A stretch of DNA of 18,743 nt, taken from the UHGV virus genome UHGV-0092215; one strand, 5' to 3'. A program made the position numbers and the translations under genes. Positions 2,834 to 18,137 of the stretch are shown piece after piece. The DNA comes from a virus. The stretch's first letter is position 1. The number at the start of each line of letters is the position of its first letter. Under the pieces are notes generated by a model. It did not search any database. It was not told where the DNA came from and was given only the letters and a program-made list of their open reading frames with translations.

Positions 2834-3886
2834 TTATGTTTTGCTCAGTTTTTCCACCTCTTCGGTGGTCTGAATAAATCTGTCAGCTTCCAGTTCTACT
2901 CCGATCGCCCGACGGCCAAGTTCTATTGCAGCTTTCACAGTTGAACCAGAGCCCATAAAGAAATCGGCAACGATATCCCCCGGCCTGCTGCTGGCGCTAA
3001 TGATCTGCTTCAGCATGTCGGCGGGTTTTTCACATGGATGTTTGCCTGGATAAAACTGAACAGGCTTATGCGTCCATACGTCGGTATACGGAACAAGAGC
3101 GGAAACAGAGAAGCAGCGCCGAAGGATTTTGTATTCCTCCAGCAATTCTGAATACTTGCGGTTTAATGACTGGTAGGTAGCCACCAGCTGGTGGTGAGGA
3201 TGTTCAAGCTTTTGCTGAATATGTTTATCGATGGCGATCCGCGTGAACAGTTCCTGCAATTTTCGATAGTCCACTTCATTCGGTAGTTGCCATTGGCTTG
3301 CACCAAACCAGTGTGACGCCATGTTTTTCTTTCCGGTTGCCTCAGCTATTTCTTTCGAGCTGACACCCAGCGATTCACGGGCATTACGGAAGTAGTCAAT
3401 CAGTGGCGTCATAATGTGCTGCTTTAGCTCTGTGCTTTTCCTTTCGTAAACATCCTCTTTACCTGTGTACGGCCCAAGATAGTGCTCAGCAAACAAAATC
3501 CGTTCCGTAGATGGAAAGTACGCACGCAGGCTTTCTTTGTTACAACCATTCCAGCGGCCCGATGGTTTTGCCCAAATTATGTGATTCAAAACGTTGAACC
3601 GGGCACGCATCATAATCTCTATGTCTGAGGCCAGTCGGTGACCGCAAAACAGGTAAATGCTGCCAGCAGGTTTAAGTACGCGAGCATACTCAGCCAGGCA
3701 GCTATCAAGCCAGCGTAAGTAGTCCTCGTCCCCCTTCCATTGGTTGTCCCAGCCGTTAGGCTTCACTTTGAAGTACGGAGGATCCGTAACAATCAGATCA
3801 ATAGAGTTATCCGGGAGGGTGGCGACGTAATGCAGGCTATCAGCGTTGATTAACTCAACACTGTTTATTTTTACAGTATTTTTCAT
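2834..3886 (-). CDS. DNA methyltransferase, beta-class (DPPY motif before FxGxG; N6-adenine or N4-cytosine)
   Basis: 350 aa; LIVTDPPYF near the N-terminus and FFMGSGST near the C-terminus; no restriction-endonuclease-like partner visible; no obvious RBS before the ATG at 3884-3886. Confidence 0.85.
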   Translation of the reverse strand: MKNTVKINSVELINADSLHYVATLPDNSIDLIVTDPPYFKVKPNGWDNQWKGDEDYLRWLDSCLAEYARVLKPAGSIYLFCGHRLASDIEIMMRARFNVLNHIIWAKPSGRWNGCNKESLRAYFPSTERILFAEHYLGPYTGKEDVYERKSTELKQHIMTPLIDYFRNARESLGVSSKEIAEATGKKNMASHWFGASQWQLPNEVDYRKLQELFTRIAIDKHIQQKLEHPHHQLVATYQSLNRKYSELLEEYKILRRCFSVSALVPYTDVWTHKPVQFYPGKHPCEKPADMLKQIISASSRPGDIVADFFMGSGSTVKAAIELGRRAIGVELEADRFIQTTEEVEKLSKT

Positions 3887-7145: not shown

Positions 7146-7544
7146 TCAACCCACAGCTGGACATATAACCACCTCTTTTTTATATGCCGTTATGGTTATC
7201 TCAACTTTTCCCTTCGGTACTATTGGCCCCCATTCCACCAGCATGCGCTTAATCTGGCTGTCGTCTTCCCAGACACCCGCATGCGTCAGCGCGTCAAACA
7301 GGGCTTTGTTGTAATTATCGATATCCCGGCGGCGCGCATCCGGCGGGTACAGAGTGATTTCTACCGCTGCCAGTTCAGTCGATGGCTTCGGGAGACGTCG
7401 TAATTGCTCAATGATCGCCACGCAGGCAGCGCTCTGGTATTTACGACCATTAGCGCTAATGAGGTGACGACCGGCCAGCGGCCCTTTGTTAGGGGCGCGC
7501 CAGTAAGCGTTTACGCTCGGAGGAAAAGGCAGGACCAGTTTCAC
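7146..7544 (-). CDS. rusA: crossover junction endodeoxyribonuclease RusA (Holliday junction resolvase)
   Basis: 132 aa; LPFPPSVNAYWR and RRRDIDNYNKALFDALTHAGVWEDDSQI match RusA; GTG start overlapping the upstream TGA (GTGA) with GGGGAGAGG RBS. Confidence 0.9.
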   Translation of the reverse strand: MKLVLPFPPSVNAYWRAPNKGPLAGRHLISANGRKYQSAACVAIIEQLRRLPKPSTELAAVEITLYPPDARRRDIDNYNKALFDALTHAGVWEDDSQIKRMLVEWGPIVPKGKVEITITAYKKEVVICPAVG

Positions 7545-8419
7545 GCGGCCTCTCCCCGCATATTGCGAACAAGTTCAGAAGCTGCAGTAATGATTTCGCT
7601 GGTGGCCGTTCGTTCCAGCCAGAGTTGACTGATGTTGGCTTTCAGCTTGTTCTGCTGAGCCTCACTCAATACGTCAACGCCTTCCACCTGGTTAAACACC
7701 AGACCAACCTCGAGAGGCCAGATACGTGACTCAGTTTCCGATGGTATGACTGGCTCCTGGGTTGCCCGCATTGCAATTGTCGGCTCTTTGCCAACAGCGA
7801 ATTGAGCCAGCGCCATAAATGCCCGACCTTTTGCCTCCAGTTCTGTGCGGTTGATATAGCTGAACCGCTCACCACGCCACGACTTATCGAATACAGCTAT
7901 GGCACCGGCAAAAAACGCACTGGTGGGCTTCTGTTTTTCGTCAGCAGGTACAAACCACACAGGCAGATCGAAGCCAATACGACCGCGAATAAACATGATG
8001 TGATCGGCGTCTTCCGGCCACCATGTTTCACTTGTCGCCGCTTTAATGAGGAACACGTAACGCCCACCCTTTTCACGCATCTCCATTGTGTGATCCATGA
8101 TGTGGGTCATGCCGGTGATCACCTGCTTCTCGTGGTACTGCGAACGGCTATACGGTGGGTTGCCATAGCCAGCGCCACCCAGTTCAGCCAGACGTTCAGA
8201 CCAGTCCTGCGTCAGCGCGTTATCTTCGGCGGTGTACCATGCCGGGAATTTCGCGTTGTCGTCGTCAGCAAACAAATCCAGAACTAATGGACCAAATAGC
8301 GCGTTGATCCCCCAAAAAAGCAGATCCGGTGTCCGCCACTGATCGCCAACTTCTTTCAATTCATGGGCTGGTTTGCTACGCAGTGCCGCCAGCGCCTGGC
8401 AATATTTATTGGTCATCAT
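7541..8419 (-). CDS. phage Dam-like DNA N6-adenine methyltransferase with about 110 aa C-terminal extension
   Basis: 292 aa; DLFADDDNAKFPAWYT followed by GNPPYS (motif I then NPPY), typical of the phage Dam family; start overlaps the upstream stop (ATGA). Confidence 0.8.
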   Translation of the reverse strand: MMTNKYCQALAALRSKPAHELKEVGDQWRTPDLLFWGINALFGPLVLDLFADDDNAKFPAWYTAEDNALTQDWSERLAELGGAGYGNPPYSRSQYHEKQVITGMTHIMDHTMEMREKGGRYVFLIKAATSETWWPEDADHIMFIRGRIGFDLPVWFVPADEKQKPTSAFFAGAIAVFDKSWRGERFSYINRTELEAKGRAFMALAQFAVGKEPTIAMRATQEPVIPSETESRIWPLEVGLVFNQVEGVDVLSEAQQNKLKANISQLWLERTATSEIITAASELVRNMRGEAA

Positions 8420-9297
8420 GAACGGAACCCCGAATTTTCTGGCAGTGAGTAATCAACACTCTGGAAGTTTGCGCGGCTGGCTGAGTTAGTCTCCCATTTG
8501 CCGTTAACGCGTTCAGGCCGGCCAGCACTGGACCATTTGGTCGCGCTTTGCAGGTAACCAGGGAAGTTTTTTGGAATGAACAGAGTTGCCGGGCGGAGGT
8601 ATTGCGCCTGCTCGCTATCACGCCAATCGGCATTTTTGTAATCCACTACCAGGCACAGGTCATCAACCGTGAATTGTTCCCGAAGACGGGCGCGAATATT
8701 CTCCAGCGACGTGCTGCACACCTGGTAGCGTGAGCCAGTAGTCTGGTTCAGGTAAGACAAAACCTGTCTGGCCTGATCAGTAATCACAACCTCAGGGTCT
8801 GGTTGCGCCGCAACCGGACAAGAGGGTTTTGAAGTTACTTGTGGATCTTGTTTTGATTTTACTGACGGATCCCCGCCAGATTCTGACGGGTCAAAACCGC
8901 CGTTTTTGACGGATTTCGACGGGTCAGTTTTTGAGGCGTCAAATTTTGATGCGTCAGATTTTGATGCGTCAGATTTTGATGTGTCAGAATCTGACAGTTG
9001 AGAAAATGCGGCAGCCTGAAGTTTCGCCACATTCAGGCGGTACACGTTCGAAGCATTACGGTTACCATTACGGCGCTGTGTGCGCGTGAGCCAGCCATCT
9101 TTTTCAAGCTTTGCGATTGCCGTTCTGATAGTGCTCGGCCCTGCGCCAAGCTGGCGAGCGATAGTTTCAATTGACGGCCAGCACACACCTTCATCGCTGC
9201 TGAAGTCAGCAAGACGAGCCATGATCGCAACACTGGACAACTTCATGCCCGACGATGCGCAACCATCCCATACGTAGCCGGTTAATTTAGTGCTCAT
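8416..9297 (-). CDS. putative replication initiation protein (lambda O-like; N-terminal HTH, conserved phage C-terminal domain)
   Basis: 293 aa; N-terminal helix-turn-helix-like segment (WPSIETIARQLGAGPSTIRTAIAKLEKDGWL); central low-complexity linker encoded by tandem DNA repeats; position downstream of cro and the CII-like gene. Confidence 0.65.
   Translation of the reverse strand: MSTKLTGYVWDGCASSGMKLSSVAIMARLADFSSDEGVCWPSIETIARQLGAGPSTIRTAIAKLEKDGWLTRTQRRNGNRNASNVYRLNVAKLQAAAFSQLSDSDTSKSDASKSDASKFDASKTDPSKSVKNGGFDPSESGGDPSVKSKQDPQVTSKPSCPVAAQPDPEVVITDQARQVLSYLNQTTGSRYQVCSTSLENIRARLREQFTVDDLCLVVDYKNADWRDSEQAQYLRPATLFIPKNFPGYLQSATKWSSAGRPERVNGKWETNSASRANFQSVDYSLPENSGFRS
8851..8997. repeat. 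iteron-like tandem repeats (about 15 bp unit TTTTGATGCGTCAGA) inside the replication initiator gene; putative origin
   Basis: Three adjacent near-identical 15-mers at 8944-8988 plus several degenerate TGACGG/CGTCA-containing copies upstream; encode the SDASK-type linker. Confidence 0.55.
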
Positions 9298-9306
9298 GAT
9301 CGTCCG

Positions 9307-9633
9307 TTATCTCCCTGAACTTTTGTCTGAAATGCTCAAGTGGGCTGAAGCATTCGTGTGGATAGCCATCTCGCAGGTAGATAACGCGCTGCGTTTCTGG
9401 CTCCCAGCGGATAACACGGACTGGCACTCCGCGGTGATCTTTGAACCTTCGGTTAAGTTCGCGCACAGGCGTTTTGCCCTCCGATAGTAGACCCCCACAA
9501 TTACGGCAGCCTGGCTGTGGTTACATGACACCCAGCGATTTGATACTTTGCATTCATACCGAAACAGCGGAAGACCCGGCACCGGGATCATTCGTAGTTG
9601 CGGTAAGTGAGGATTTACGATTAAATTGCTCAT
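9307..9633 (-). CDS. questionable hypothetical protein (108 aa) between CII-like gene and replication gene
   Basis: In-frame ATG at 9631-9633 just after the CII-like stop; GGAG lies 11 nt upstream (poor spacing); odd composition; may be non-coding. Confidence 0.25.
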   Translation of the reverse strand: MSNLIVNPHLPQLRMIPVPGLPLFRYECKVSNRWVSCNHSQAAVIVGVYYRRAKRLCANLTEGSKITAECQSVLSAGSQKRSALSTCEMAIHTNASAHLSISDKSSGR

Positions 9634-9638
9634 GCGGA

Positions 9639-10190
9639 TTATTTCTCCATACTCGAAGAGTTGTTCGCCAAGGCGCCCGGAGCTGCACACTCGCGGGCGT
9701 CACTCTTTTCTGGAAGGCAATAGACTCGTGAAATCAGGTTCAGAAACGTCATAAGCGTTACCCGGAACTGGTAGGCGATTTCGTTCAGACTGTCCCACTC
9801 CCCTTTATCAACCACACCATCATCGATGTATCGACGATATGCGTTAACCAGGTCACCAAGCCTGCCCACCAGCTCAGCCAGCTTTAAACCAATCTCTTCG
9901 TTCTCTGTTTCTGGTGCCGCGCCCGGGATATGGATCCCGTTATCGGTTTGACGAGAAAACGCATCAGCTATGTAGCTAACACCAGCAGCTTTCTGTAGCA
10001 CCATCGCCCACCCCATAGGGAAGATCTGATCCCCATCCACACGAAGGCGGTTAAACAGCGCATTCTCTGTTACCCCCAACCATTCCGCCGCCTCGGCATA
10101 GCCTCCAGGCAGGTCGGTAATCGTCTTTTTAATCGCTACCACCAGCCAGGAAGGCTGACGTTCGACTTTCCAAATAGGTTCGTTACCCAC
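9639..10190 (-). CDS. CII-like phage regulatory protein (183 aa)
   Basis: GTG start at 10188-10190 with GGAG RBS 6 nt upstream, 10 nt after the cro-like stop; HTH-like segment AEWLGVTENALFNRL; family assigned mainly from position. Confidence 0.5.
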   Translation of the reverse strand: MGNEPIWKVERQPSWLVVAIKKTITDLPGGYAEAAEWLGVTENALFNRLRVDGDQIFPMGWAMVLQKAAGVSYIADAFSRQTDNGIHIPGAAPETENEEIGLKLAELVGRLGDLVNAYRRYIDDGVVDKGEWDSLNEIAYQFRVTLMTFLNLISRVYCLPEKSDARECAAPGALANNSSSMEK

Positions 10191-10200
10191 GGCTTACTCC

Positions 10201-10446
10201 TTAGTTCTGTGGTTTTGTATCTGTATTCGCACCTGTACAGTTCGAATATCGATGCGGGTAAAGAATTTCTAGCTCATTGATTTTTCCTGAAAAGAAGCTG
10301 ACTAGTCGCTCAGCTATATCCAGGGAAGCAATTTGCTGTCCTCGCTCTATCCGACTTAGATTTCCCGGGTCGATATCGACACCTTTTGCGACATATGAAA
10401 GAGTCATACCTTGCGATTTACGCAAGATTCGTAACGGTGATTGCAT
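10201..10446 (-). CDS. cro: Cro-like HTH repressor (XRE family, 81 aa)
   Basis: HTH motif MTLSYVAKGVDIDPGNLSRIERGQQ; AAGGAGG RBS 4 nt upstream of the ATG; divergent from the CI-like gene across an operator region. Confidence 0.8.
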   Translation of the reverse strand: MQSPLRILRKSQGMTLSYVAKGVDIDPGNLSRIERGQQIASLDIAERLVSFFSGKINELEILYPHRYSNCTGANTDTKPQN

Positions 10447-10543
10447 ATACCCTCCTTTAATTGCGTAATACGCATATTAATTGGAACATACGACTTGCGC
10501 AAGTTGCTTTGCACATCACGCAAAAACAACATGTAATAGGCGC
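10447..10543. promoter_or_regulatory. divergent immunity control region (OR-like operators with PR and PRM-like promoters)
   Basis: Palindromes TTGCGTAATACGCAT (10461-10475), ACTTGCGCAAGT (10493-10504) and TTGCACATCACGCAA (10509-10523); plus-strand TTGCAC-17-TGTAAT places a start at about the cI ATG; minus-strand TTGCGC-17-TAATAT serves cro. Confidence 0.6.
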
Positions 10544-11236
10544 ATGAATATTGGAAACCGCATAAGAGAACTTCGCACTGCGAAGGGCCTGAAAATCGCT
10601 GATCTTGCAGAGGCTGTCGGTGTCGACGGCGCAAATATCTCTCGCCTTGAAACCGGCAAGCAGAAGTCATTTACTGAACAATCACTTAGTAAATATGCTG
10701 AAGCTTTAGGCGTTAGTGTCGCTGAGCTATTTACTCCTAGTGGAAATGCAACTACTGTATATAAAAACAGTGTAACAGCCCCACATATTGGAGATGACTC
10801 GGTGTTTAGAGTGGAAATTCTTGATGTTAGCGCTAGCGCTGGCGGAGGCTTTATTCAAGGTAGCGACGTTATAGATGTCATCAGATCCATCGAATACAAC
10901 AACGAGCGTGCTTTATCCATGTTCGGTGGTCGGGCAGCTGAGCAAGTGAAGGTAATCAACGTTCGTGGCGATAGCATGGCAGAGACTATTGAGCCTGGCG
11001 ACCTGATTTTCGTTGATATTTCAATACATGAATTCGACGGCGATGGTATATATGTATTTGGTTTTGATGACAAAATATATGTTAAGCGTTTGCAGATGAT
11101 ACCAGACCAATTGCTAGTAATATCAGATAACCCAAAATATCGAGAGTGGTCTGTCGATAAATCGAATGAGCATCGTTTTTATGTCTACGGGAAAGTAATG
11201 ATAAGCCAATCTCAGTCATTTAAACGCCACGCCTAG
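10544..11236 (+). CDS. cI: CI-like prophage repressor (N-terminal HTH, C-terminal S24 LexA-like peptidase domain)
   Basis: 230 aa from ATG 10544; HTH LKIADLAEAVGVDGANISRLETGKQ; C-terminal GDSMAETIEPGDLIFVD...YVKRL typical of S24 self-cleaving repressors. Confidence 0.9.
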   Translation: MNIGNRIRELRTAKGLKIADLAEAVGVDGANISRLETGKQKSFTEQSLSKYAEALGVSVAELFTPSGNATTVYKNSVTAPHIGDDSVFRVEILDVSASAGGGFIQGSDVIDVIRSIEYNNERALSMFGGRAAEQVKVINVRGDSMAETIEPGDLIFVDISIHEFDGDGIYVFGFDDKIYVKRLQMIPDQLLVISDNPKYREWSVDKSNEHRFYVYGKVMISQSQSFKRHA

Positions 11237-12521: not shown

Positions 12522-13439
12522 ATGAACAATCCGTTTTTCAAAAATATGTTGGTGTATCGCCTTAGTCGCGATTTCACCATCAACCAGGAAGAGCTGGAAC
12601 AGCAGCTTGAACTATTTCGCTTCACTCCATGCGGTAGCCAGGATATGGCAAAAACCGGTTGGGTATCACCACTTGGTCAGCTGTCAGATCGCTTGCATCA
12701 CACTGTCAATAATCAAGTGTTGTTGGTTATTCGCCGGGAAGAAAAAATACTGCCATCTCCTGTCATTGCTGAAGAACTGCGCAAGCGTGTGTCGCGTCTG
12801 GAATCCGATCAGGGGCGTCGCCTCAAAAAAACTGAGAAAGATTCGCTGCGTGATGAAGTGTTGCACTCCCTGCTTCCTCGGGCGTTCTCCAAAAACTCGA
12901 CTGTTAGTTTGTGGATCAACGTCACCGACGGTCTGATCATGGTTGATGCAGCCAGCGCTAAACGTGCCGAAGACTCACTGGCCCTGCTTCGTAAAACTCT
13001 CGGTTCTCTCCCGGTGGTACCGCTGACTATGGAAACGCCGATCGAACTAACTATGACCGAATGGGTTCGTTCCGGTAGTGCGCCTGCTGGCTTTGGCCTG
13101 GGTGATGAAGCCGAGCTGAAAGCTATTCTTGAAGATGGCGGTATTGGACGCTTTAAAAAACAGACTCTGGTCAGTGACGAAATTCATGTGCATCTGGAAG
13201 CTGGCAAAGTAGTTACAAAGCTGTCTATCGACTGGCAACAGCGCATTCAGTTCGTTCTTTGCGATGACGGCAGCATCAAACGCCTTAAGTTCTCTAATGA
13301 GATTACTGAACAAAACGACGATATCGACCGTGAGGATGCGGCTCAGCGGTTCGACGCTGACTTTGTTCTAATGACCGGCGAGCTTATCTCTCTCATTAAC
13401 GGATTAACGACCTCTCTCGGCGGCGAAGCCAAGCGATAA
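12522..13439 (+). CDS. rdgC: recombination-associated protein RdgC homolog (phage-encoded)
   Basis: 305 aa; long collinear similarity to E. coli RdgC as I recall it ([81 protein letters not shown]); GAGG RBS. Confidence 0.9.
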
Positions 13440-17681: not shown

Positions 17682-17710
17682 AAAAAAACCCGCTTCGGCG
17701 GGTTAGTTTT
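17682..17710. terminator. bidirectional intrinsic terminator between convergent xis and the YafO-like gene
   Basis: AACCCGC-TTCG-GCGGGTT with a 7-A run upstream (a 7-U run on the minus-strand RNA) and AGTTTTCATCTTT downstream. Confidence 0.7.
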
Positions 17711-18137
17711 CATCTTTATAATTCTGTGCAATTCGCGCTAGATAGCTCATCACATCATGTTTTCTTGCTTTTCCATGTGCATCGGGATGCATAATAGCGA
17801 TGAGTGAATATTTATTCTCATAAAGCTCACCTTGAACATACACAAGACAAGCATCATTGTTAGGATCCCCTTTCTTACAGACCCTATCCGGCTGTGGACG
17901 ATTCCCTGGAAACTTGTTTGGCGGTAGACAAAGATGGATATGCATCAACCCAGCCCGGAAAGCGCCATAAGGCTGAGTATACGCAACGTCCCTACCGAAG
18001 TATTGCGGAAGCTCACCAGTCGCTTTGTATCTCAGGAAATCATCGATAATAGAAGCCTCTAGCTCCGGAAATTTGAGAAATACTTCATCAAAAAATTCAG
18101 CTTTGGTTGCTGGATTAATAGAGGCTTCTAAGTGCAC
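17703..18137 (-). CDS. YafO-family toxin-like protein (putative ribosome-dependent mRNA interferase homolog)
   Basis: 144 aa with GTG start; resembles E. coli YafO as I recall it (DDFLRYKATGELPQYFGRDVAY vs ADFISYKRDGVLPDIFGRDALY; HIHL; LVYVQG; LIAIMHPDAH); AT-rich relative to neighbours. Confidence 0.6.
   Translation of the reverse strand: MHLEASINPATKAEFFDEVFLKFPELEASIIDDFLRYKATGELPQYFGRDVAYTQPYGAFRAGLMHIHLCLPPNKFPGNRPQPDRVCKKGDPNNDACLVYVQGELYENKYSLIAIMHPDAHGKARKHDVMSYLARIAQNYKDEN

Follow-up and report, generated by a model that had tools for sequence, protein, structure and literature searches.

A probable replication origin made of 15-bp repeats within the initiator gene of a lambdoid prophage

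Iteron-Like Repeats within the Initiator Gene

The 18,743-nucleotide sequence of UHGV virus genome UHGV-0092215 (this whole stretch is called the window below) carries a replication initiator gene of 293 codons on the minus strand (8416-9297), and a tandem array of 15-bp repeats lies in the middle of this gene. The array belongs to a zone of about 200 bp (~8798-8997) that is constrained at the DNA level and that probably constitutes the replication origin of the phage.

The repeats had been noticed in an earlier reading of the sequence alone (the sequence-only reading), and the three adjacent near-identical copies described there were found again: two perfect copies of TTTTGATGCGTCAGA occupy 8944-8958 and 8959-8973, and a third, with one change, occupies 8974-8988. 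The five or more degenerate copies upstream that were also claimed came down to two weaker in-register copies, at 8929-8943 (2 mismatches) and 8914-8928 (4 mismatches); 15-mers beyond the 8914-8988 register differ from the unit at 10-13 positions, and the register is lost. Tandem Repeats Finder, which had been proposed as a check, recovered the period-15 array as the single array in the whole window (8912-8988, 5.1 copies, score 105). Searching for the TTTTGATGCGTCAGA pattern with at most 3 mismatches gave 5 matches against 0.79 expected, a number reached in 0 of 200 shuffles.

In the orientation of the gene the unit reads TCA AAA TCT GAC nnn and encodes an S-K-S-D-x pentapeptide. Six units were found in the gene frame (codons 101-131, i.e., residues 101-131 of the protein), and the array was correctly described as lying inside the initiator coding sequence and encoding a low-complexity linker. 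This interdomain linker comprises about 65 residues, and its AlphaFold predicted local distance difference test (pLDDT) values of 26-39 are consistent with disorder. The units share an 11-bp core with the consensus TCARAWTCTGA, which has imperfect dyad symmetry. The first core, TCAGATTCTGA, is followed by TCAAAATCTGA twice, then by TCAAAATTTGA and TCAAAAACTGA and by a degenerate sixth core. The half-sites alternate in orientation, spaced by 6 and 9 bp, so that two dyads are candidates for recognition, TCARA-N-TCTGA and TCTGAC-NNN-TCARA; an uncontacted central spacer in the latter would fit with the nnn codon being free.

Conservation of the Repeat Region as DNA

Relatives were gathered from 77 loci (one genome per species), 80 viral contigs and several annotated phage and Escherichia coli records. 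Units picked by the peptide pattern only numbered 285, from 69 distinct regions in about 30 Enterobacterales genera, and the repeat-bearing linker was seen from Citrobacter and Escherichia to Yersinia, Rahnella, Pantoea, Providencia and Proteus. Comparison of repeat number across relatives, as the sequence-only reading had suggested, gave 3-6 units in most loci and 8 in one locus.

Although the units had been selected as peptides, their synonymous positions were found to be almost fixed. The first serine was encoded by TCA in 277 of 285 units (97%, versus 11% of the serine codons in the N-domains of the same genes), the lysine by AAA in 184 of 184 units (100% versus 60%) and the serine at the third position by TCT in 191 of 210 units (versus 9%). 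The fifth codon of the unit was represented by 22 different codons for chemically unrelated residues (A, P, T, G, V, R, and others). Frozen wobble positions next to a whole codon that is free are the signature of selection acting on the DNA sequence rather than on the peptide.

A codon alignment of 33 non-redundant homologues (N-domain DNA pairwise <90% identical) extended this beyond the units. The top-codon fraction was 0.87-0.95 for residues 101-160 and 0.79 for residues 161-170, compared to 0.47-0.71 for residues 1-100 and 0.38-0.70 for residues 171-293. Conservation of the repeats as protein only had been named beforehand as the outcome that would speak against iterons; the opposite was found, the DNA itself being conserved with a mean top-codon fraction of 0.91 inside the zone versus 0.59 outside (Mann-Whitney p = 1.5e-18). 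The synonymous constraint covers the repeats and about 100 bp after them and lies far above that of either flanking domain. Likewise, when the window was compared pairwise with distant relatives, residues common to both were encoded by the same codon in 76-92% of cases in the linker, 34-47% in the N-domain and 31-55% in the C-domain.

Organization of the Constrained Zone

In gene orientation the zone consists of the palindrome and the units, a variable 12-bp spacer, an inverted unit copy, two 24-bp repeats and a distal palindrome (Table 1). The element had originally been placed at 8851-8997; the repeats do lie within this span, but 8851-8913 is mostly not made of 15-bp copies, and the element reaches ~8798. 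That stretch is a separate conserved block, in which the inverted copy and the first 24-bp GATC repeat are found. Read along the gene, the second palindrome is TTTTGACCCGTCAGAATCTGG, and the consensus TTTTgACCCGtCAGAATCTGG at the inverted-copy site is kept in 45 non-redundant relatives.

The GATC (Dam) sites that open the two 24-bp repeats (8868-8871 and 8844-8847) are kept in 46 of 46 and 42 of 46 non-redundant relatives, respectively, and GATC density amounts to 25 per kb in this 80-bp zone versus 2.8 per kb elsewhere in the gene. Just downstream of the distal palindrome GGTTGCGGCGCAACC the C-domain types of the relatives diverge, which makes this point a mosaic junction. Besides, a possible DnaA box, AGATCCACA at ~8840-8848, agreed by eye with 7 of 9 consensus positions; most relatives have GATCCATCAG, and the candidate was dropped. 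When 8300-10700 was searched for an internal promoter, one weak 9/12 sigma-70-like match was found, inside the array, which is fewer than in shuffled sequences.

Table 1. Position of the initiator gene, its domains, the elements of the constrained zone and the adjoining dam gene in the window.
Feature	Position	Strand	Basis or remark
Replication initiator gene, 293 aa: N-terminal winged helix, disordered linker, Phg_2220_C C-domain	8416-9297	-	ORF (open reading frame), Pfam, PHROG
N-terminal DNA-binding domain, aa 1-96, presumed iteron reader	9010-9297	-	HTH_36, GntR and MarR winged-helix matches
Six units, 15-bp period	8909-8994		Repeat searches; synonymous positions fixed over 285 units from 69 distinct regions
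Unit cores	8984-8994, 8969-8979, 8954-8964, 8939-8949, 8924-8934, 8909-8919		First core perfect palindrome TCAGATTCTGA; last core degenerate
Inverted unit copy TTTTGACCCGTCAGA overlapping second near-perfect palindrome TCAGAATCTGG	8876-8896		Minus-strand match 8882-8896; inverted repeats
Two 24-bp direct repeats GATCCGTCAGTAAAATCAAAACAA and GATCCACAAGTAACTTCAAAACCC, each opening with GATC	8824-8871		Most AT-rich part of the gene; candidate unwinding region
Short palindrome GGTTGCGGCGCAACC	8801-8815		Inverted repeat; top-codon fraction of its codons 0.79-1.0
Phg_2220_C domain, aa 179-250, presumed helicase- or host-factor-recruiting half	8548-8763	-	Pfam and TIGR02220
Phage Dam N6-adenine methyltransferase, in the slot of lambda P	7541-8419	-	Pfam Dam E 5.3e-43; TIGR01712 E 6.9e-61

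Comparison with oriλ and Lambda O

The origin of lambda, oriλ, consists of four 18-19-bp imperfect inverted repeats and a 38-bp AT-rich tract in the middle of gene O, and origins of Stx phages carry six iterons versus four in lambda (PMC7466680, PMC3349717). The lambda iterons correspond to O codons 117-145 and the AT-rich tract to codons 146-158. In the window the units occupy codons 101-131, and the 40-bp stretch with the highest AT content of the gene (0.70, gene nt 433-472) corresponds to codons 145-157, so that the lambda-like placement of the iterons proposed by the sequence-only reading is borne out. In both cases dyad-bearing iterons are found mid initiator gene and code for the linker between the N- and C-domains, the most AT-rich tract of the gene follows directly on their promoter-distal side, and the gene comes after cro and a cII or cII-like gene in the early right operon. 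As with the Stx phages 933W and P27, iteron number varies between relatives and adds residues to the protein.

The two systems differ in several respects. The lambda iterons of 18-19 bp are spaced about 20-24 bp apart, whereas the window has a 15-bp period with an 11-bp core, and the unit sequences are different (TCAAAATCTGAC in the window, ATCCCTCAAAACGAGGGA in lambda). The AT-rich part of the window contains two near-invariant GATC sites and is weaker (70% AT, versus the lambda maximum of 80% at gene nt 436-475). No P gene follows the initiator of the window.

The proteins differ as well. The N-domain of the window protein is HTH_36 (residues 23-70, E 8.7e-12) and not Phage_rep_O, and the C-domain is Phg_2220_C (PF09524; residues 179-250, E 1.3e-25, 89.7 bits against a cut-off of 27), which was also matched by TIGR02220 (74.2 bits against a cut-off of 66.65). 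The window protein gave no match to Phage_rep_O (PF04492) at E <= 0.01, for which lambda O scores 5.7e-36, and BLASTP against lambda O returned only E = 0.63, i.e., no similarity. At the profile level the PHROG labels of the initiator are 'replication initiation protein' and 'replication initiation O-like'; PHROG 678 and 345, both with the latter label, were matched with E 1e-14 and 4.8e-9 by the window protein and with 1.7e-35 and 5.2e-17 by lambda O. The designation as an O-like protein therefore needs to be divided: it is right for the architecture and for a remote ancestry of the N-domain, and wrong for the C-domain, which is unrelated to that of lambda O.

As a separate observation, CGTCAGAGAATTCTGGCGAATCC in lambda past the AT-rich tract (L164, 1150-1200) resembles the conserved CGTCAGAATCTGGCGGGGATCC of the present family (window 8868-8892), which could be either a coincidence or a shared origin element.

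Modular Exchange of the N-Domain and Repeats

The BLAST match of the window in more than 1,800 E. coli genomes, in the phages SfIV and SfII and in yfdO of E. coli K-12 covers only 8843-9297, i.e., the N-domain and the repeats. This module matches 1,864 of 5,426 complete E. coli genomes, and the DNA of the cassette is about 81% identical where another C-domain follows it; over SfIV, SfII, YfdO, and phiNP the identity to the window is about 78-81%. The sibling proteins continue with an alternative C-domain that is homologous to the C-domain of lambda O (E 1e-25 and 2e-29). A different DNA-binding head and a different repeat array thus sit exactly where lambda O has its own head and iterons.

Proteins of this kind have been annotated as 'replication protein O' or 'primosomal protein' (SfIV gp41, SfII 'O protein', K-12 YfdO of CPS-53, phiNP Rep). 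The initiator of phiNP, a Citrobacter phage with a deposited complete circular genome, has a Phg_2220_C C-domain and is directly followed by a Dam methyltransferase gene, as in the window, whereas SfIV, SfII, and YfdO have the lambda-O-type C-domain, followed by a YfdN/PerC-like gene. In the genome records inspected (SfIV, phiNP, and four E. coli chromosomes) neither iterons nor an origin is annotated.

Within the main family, conservation of the core motif always goes together with conservation of the recognition-helix and wing residues of the N-domain (TIARQ.GAG.ST.RTAI, RR.GNRNASN.Y.LN). A subfamily with 50% N-domain identity has a different unit, TTGACCCGTCAA, with the same 15-bp period in the same place; downstream of its array come the same GATCCGTCAG repeats, then a C-domain of the lambda-O type and a DnaC-like gene. 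A 16-kb circular E. coli 'plasmid' (NZ_CP148542.1; L165, 1660-2640) is really a lambdoid early-region fragment with TTGACCCGTCAA units at a 15-bp period and an adjoining DnaC-like gene; a frameshift in the conserved GATC block interrupts its initiator homologue.

The K-12 yfdO remnant (L005, 2499-3206, CPS-53/KpLE1) lacks the N-terminal DNA-binding domain and keeps the whole repeat array and the GATC block. It might act as a titrating or cross-reacting site when phages of this specificity come in.

Interpretation as a Replication Origin

Because of its position within the gene, its modularity, its neighbours and its co-variation with the DNA-binding domain, the zone at ~8798-8997 is in our opinion likely to be the phage replication origin, lying oriλ-like inside the linker-coding part of the initiator gene. 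What we observed directly are the repeats themselves, their constraint as DNA, their restriction to this location, the exchange of modules and the neighbouring genes; binding, unwinding, helicase recruitment and any role of Dam methylation are what we infer. The initiator gene would be transcribed from the cro-side early promoter. The N-terminal winged helix, probably as dimers, would bind the five or six 15-bp-spaced units, and the resulting nucleoprotein complex would destabilise the adjoining A/T-rich pair of 24-bp GATC-bearing repeats. The Phg_2220_C C-domain would then recruit the replicative helicase, and with no phage-encoded loader the host DnaC-DnaB would be used directly.

Several points weigh against this interpretation. 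No experimental binding or initiation at the site was found for the phage or any relative. The sizeable ORFs of the window gave no Pfam match to a helicase, helicase-loader or primase domain. As given above, lambda has the stronger AT-rich stretch, and the 15-bp spacing puts about 1.4 helical turns between sites, compared to roughly two in lambda. The AlphaFold2 model of the initiator, built on an alignment of 14 sequences, has a mean pLDDT of 49.7 and is too poor for a fold test of either domain. Finally, frequent recombination at the module junction, and not purifying selection, could be behind part of the DNA identity.

The leading alternative is that the conserved DNA is another kind of cis site: an operator or attenuator of the initiator, a binding array for another protein, or a junction for module exchange. 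The zone sits exactly at the point where C-domains are swapped, and the GATCCGTCAG block persists in the subfamily with different repeat units. However, the 280-bp linker zones of 147 loci contain the core TCA[AG]A[AT]TCTG[AT] 360 times, and their flanks, 701 kb in all, do not contain it once; its absence from the flanks, promoters included, argues that it is not an operator shared with promoters. Invariant positions are moreover interleaved with free ones, which points to site-specific selection and not to recent recombinational spread, and both the arrangement and the position copy oriλ. We therefore regard another cis function as unlikely, while a junction role and an origin role are compatible and not mutually exclusive.

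A second explanation is that slippage produced a low-complexity protein linker, with functionless DNA and with identical copies left by recent duplication. Whole units do change in number between close relatives: alleles of 283, 288, and 293 residues coexist among the best 120 protein matches listed, all of which are at least 79% identical, and the window, with its two exact copies, has one unit more than its nearest relatives L003 and L007. The segment is also predicted to be disordered. Slippage alone is nevertheless contradicted by the codon data and improbable, since the same synonymous codons are kept across genera in which the flanking domains are near synonymous saturation, and since a whole codon per unit is free for amino acid change while the wobble positions are fixed.

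We rate equally low a constraint on the mRNA, with palindromic units pairing into hairpins that would govern how the early transcript is translated or how stable it is. The transcript of 8800-9010 is predicted to fold with -63.2 kcal/mol compared to -41.0 kcal/mol for shuffled sequences (z = -5.8), and this strong fold arises because the two palindromes that bracket the array can pair. However, it is the sequence that is conserved and not the pairing. In the common unit TCAAA-A-TCTGA the dyad is broken, and its 1-nt centre cannot form a loop; in some relatives GAA occurs in both bracketing palindromes and leaves an uncompensated mismatch at the centre; anything from 3 to 8 units lies between the brackets; and there was no Rfam match in the whole window. 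A second gene in another frame, for which ORFs crossing the array at 8931-9089 (plus, 52 aa) and 8859-9032 (minus, 57 aa) could be cited, is very improbable as the source of the synonymous constraint, since none of the five alternative frames is open in all 45 non-redundant relatives (best antisense frame 17/45, the others 0-1/45).

Helicase Loading and the Gene Downstream

With respect to helicase loading, the sequence-only reading had also pointed out that no DnaC/P-like loader gene is visible downstream of the initiator; this agrees with the domain search, and the slot is occupied by dam, whose start overlaps the initiator stop codon. A loader gene lies directly downstream in 2 of 44 non-redundant relatives, as a lambda-P homologue (L042, E 6.8e-62) and as a DnaC/IstB-like ATPase (L066). 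In the other relatives the slot contains a methyltransferase of some type, a 140-160-aa YfdN-like protein with winged helix-turn-helix (wHTH) and PerC parts, or other genes. The simplest inference, by analogy with iteron plasmids, is that the phage would rely on host DnaC-DnaB.

The YfdN-like protein (N-terminal wHTH-like part and PerC) starts 4 nt before the initiator stop codon in about 20 of 44 relatives, among them L009, L014, L015, L017, L019, L022, L029, L030, L036, L043, L044, L046, L049, and L052. This protein, which the window lacks, may act as an accessory partner in replication or regulation.

The phage Dam has a C-terminal extension of about 95 residues and is translationally coupled to the initiator. 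The near-invariant GATC pair together with a coupled Dam hints at methylation-sensitive control of the origin.

A tail at the extreme C-terminus, [IV]P-x-GFR[GS], is common to most homologues with either type of C-domain (window 8416-8445, ...LPENSGFRS; SfIV, ...IPAGFRG; also L001, L029, and most of L008-L074) and is missing in L042, the relative with the adjacent lambda-P homologue. A host replication factor could dock on this tail.

Comparison with Other Systems and Significance

Origins located inside the gene of the initiator or 'replisome organiser' are also known from SPP1, where oriL lies in gene 38, and from lactococcal P335-type phages. Such initiators of phages of Gram-positive bacteria bind repeats in the sequence that encodes them, through an N-domain that is DnaD-like or a winged helix. 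These origins differ from the probable one of the window in hosts, repeat sequences and partner proteins. The window protein matched DnaD_N (PF21984) with 21.6 bits, below the cut-off of 27 bits, and PHROG 186, 'DnaD-like helicase loader', with E 7.8e-7.

In iteron plasmids (pSC101, R6K, F, and oriR of P1) the initiator binds to tandem iterons that adjoin an AT-rich region and uses host DnaB-DnaC with no loader of its own, and P1 oriR contains functionally important GATC repeats. In these plasmids the rep gene does not contain the iterons, and it codes for an initiator of another family. The window protein had no Rep_3-type Pfam match, and a search of PLSDB gave no small plasmid with the initiator gene as its sole replicon, the matches being prophages on megaplasmids, phage-sized circles and prophage fragments. 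A sequence search of PDB returned only marginal MarR-type winged-helix matches (E 0.035).

The oriλ-style design is already familiar, and our results only extend the lambda paradigm, within a less-studied initiator family. The distinctive features of this probable origin in an HTH_36/Phg_2220_C initiator gene are the 15-bp period, the conserved GATC pair next to a phage Dam gene and the lack of a loader. Literature searches on the origin of this family, 'initiator-solo', Phg_2220_C, yfdO, and SfIV gave no description of the repeats, although a mention in the review by Weigel & Seitz (2006) is possible; the SfIV genome paper mentions no origin.

The module is very common: it occurs in prophages across the Enterobacterales, in Shigella serotype-converting phages and, as the yfdO remnant, in K-12. 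With the origin and the iteron consensus defined, origins could be annotated in such prophages, and co-resident prophages that have the motif in common would be predicted to be incompatible in replication or to cross-inhibit each other. One gene with an internal origin would also be a compact test system for recruitment of the host helicase without a P- or DnaC-type partner. A more far-reaching proposal, which we consider doubtful, is a portable specificity cassette (winged helix, 15-bp iterons and GATC unwinding region) that is shuffled between unrelated helicase-recruiting C-domains (Phg_2220_C or lambda-O type), with loader-free firing gated by phage Dam methylation of the GATC pair and with host factors docking on the ...P-x-GFR[GS] tail.

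Genomic Context

The window is the early and late region of a lambdoid prophage. A divergent cI-type repressor gene is located at 10481-11236 on the plus strand, and leftward from it follow a cro-like gene (10201-10446), a YmfL/CII-like gene (9639-10190), a DUF4222 gene (9287-9466), the initiator gene and dam (7541-8419). Past dam, genes were found for RusA, an ORF6N/ANT protein, a DUF968 protein, antiterminator Q and a second methylase, and then for a holin and an endolysin. Among the 120 matches mentioned above, the closest relatives of the initiator protein are mostly from Citrobacter freundii (95-97% identity).

The DUF4222 gene (59 aa, minus strand) overlaps the start of the initiator gene by 11 nt, and this upstream position of DUF4222 is conserved in those E. 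coli and plasmid records that were inspected. A 127-aa ORF in another frame (9307-9690, minus) had no Pfam match and is probably spurious. Other cargo of the prophage comprises genes for a YafO-family toxin (17703-18137, minus), an RdgC homologue (12522-13439, plus) and the second DNA methylase, of the N6_N4 type (2834-3886, minus).

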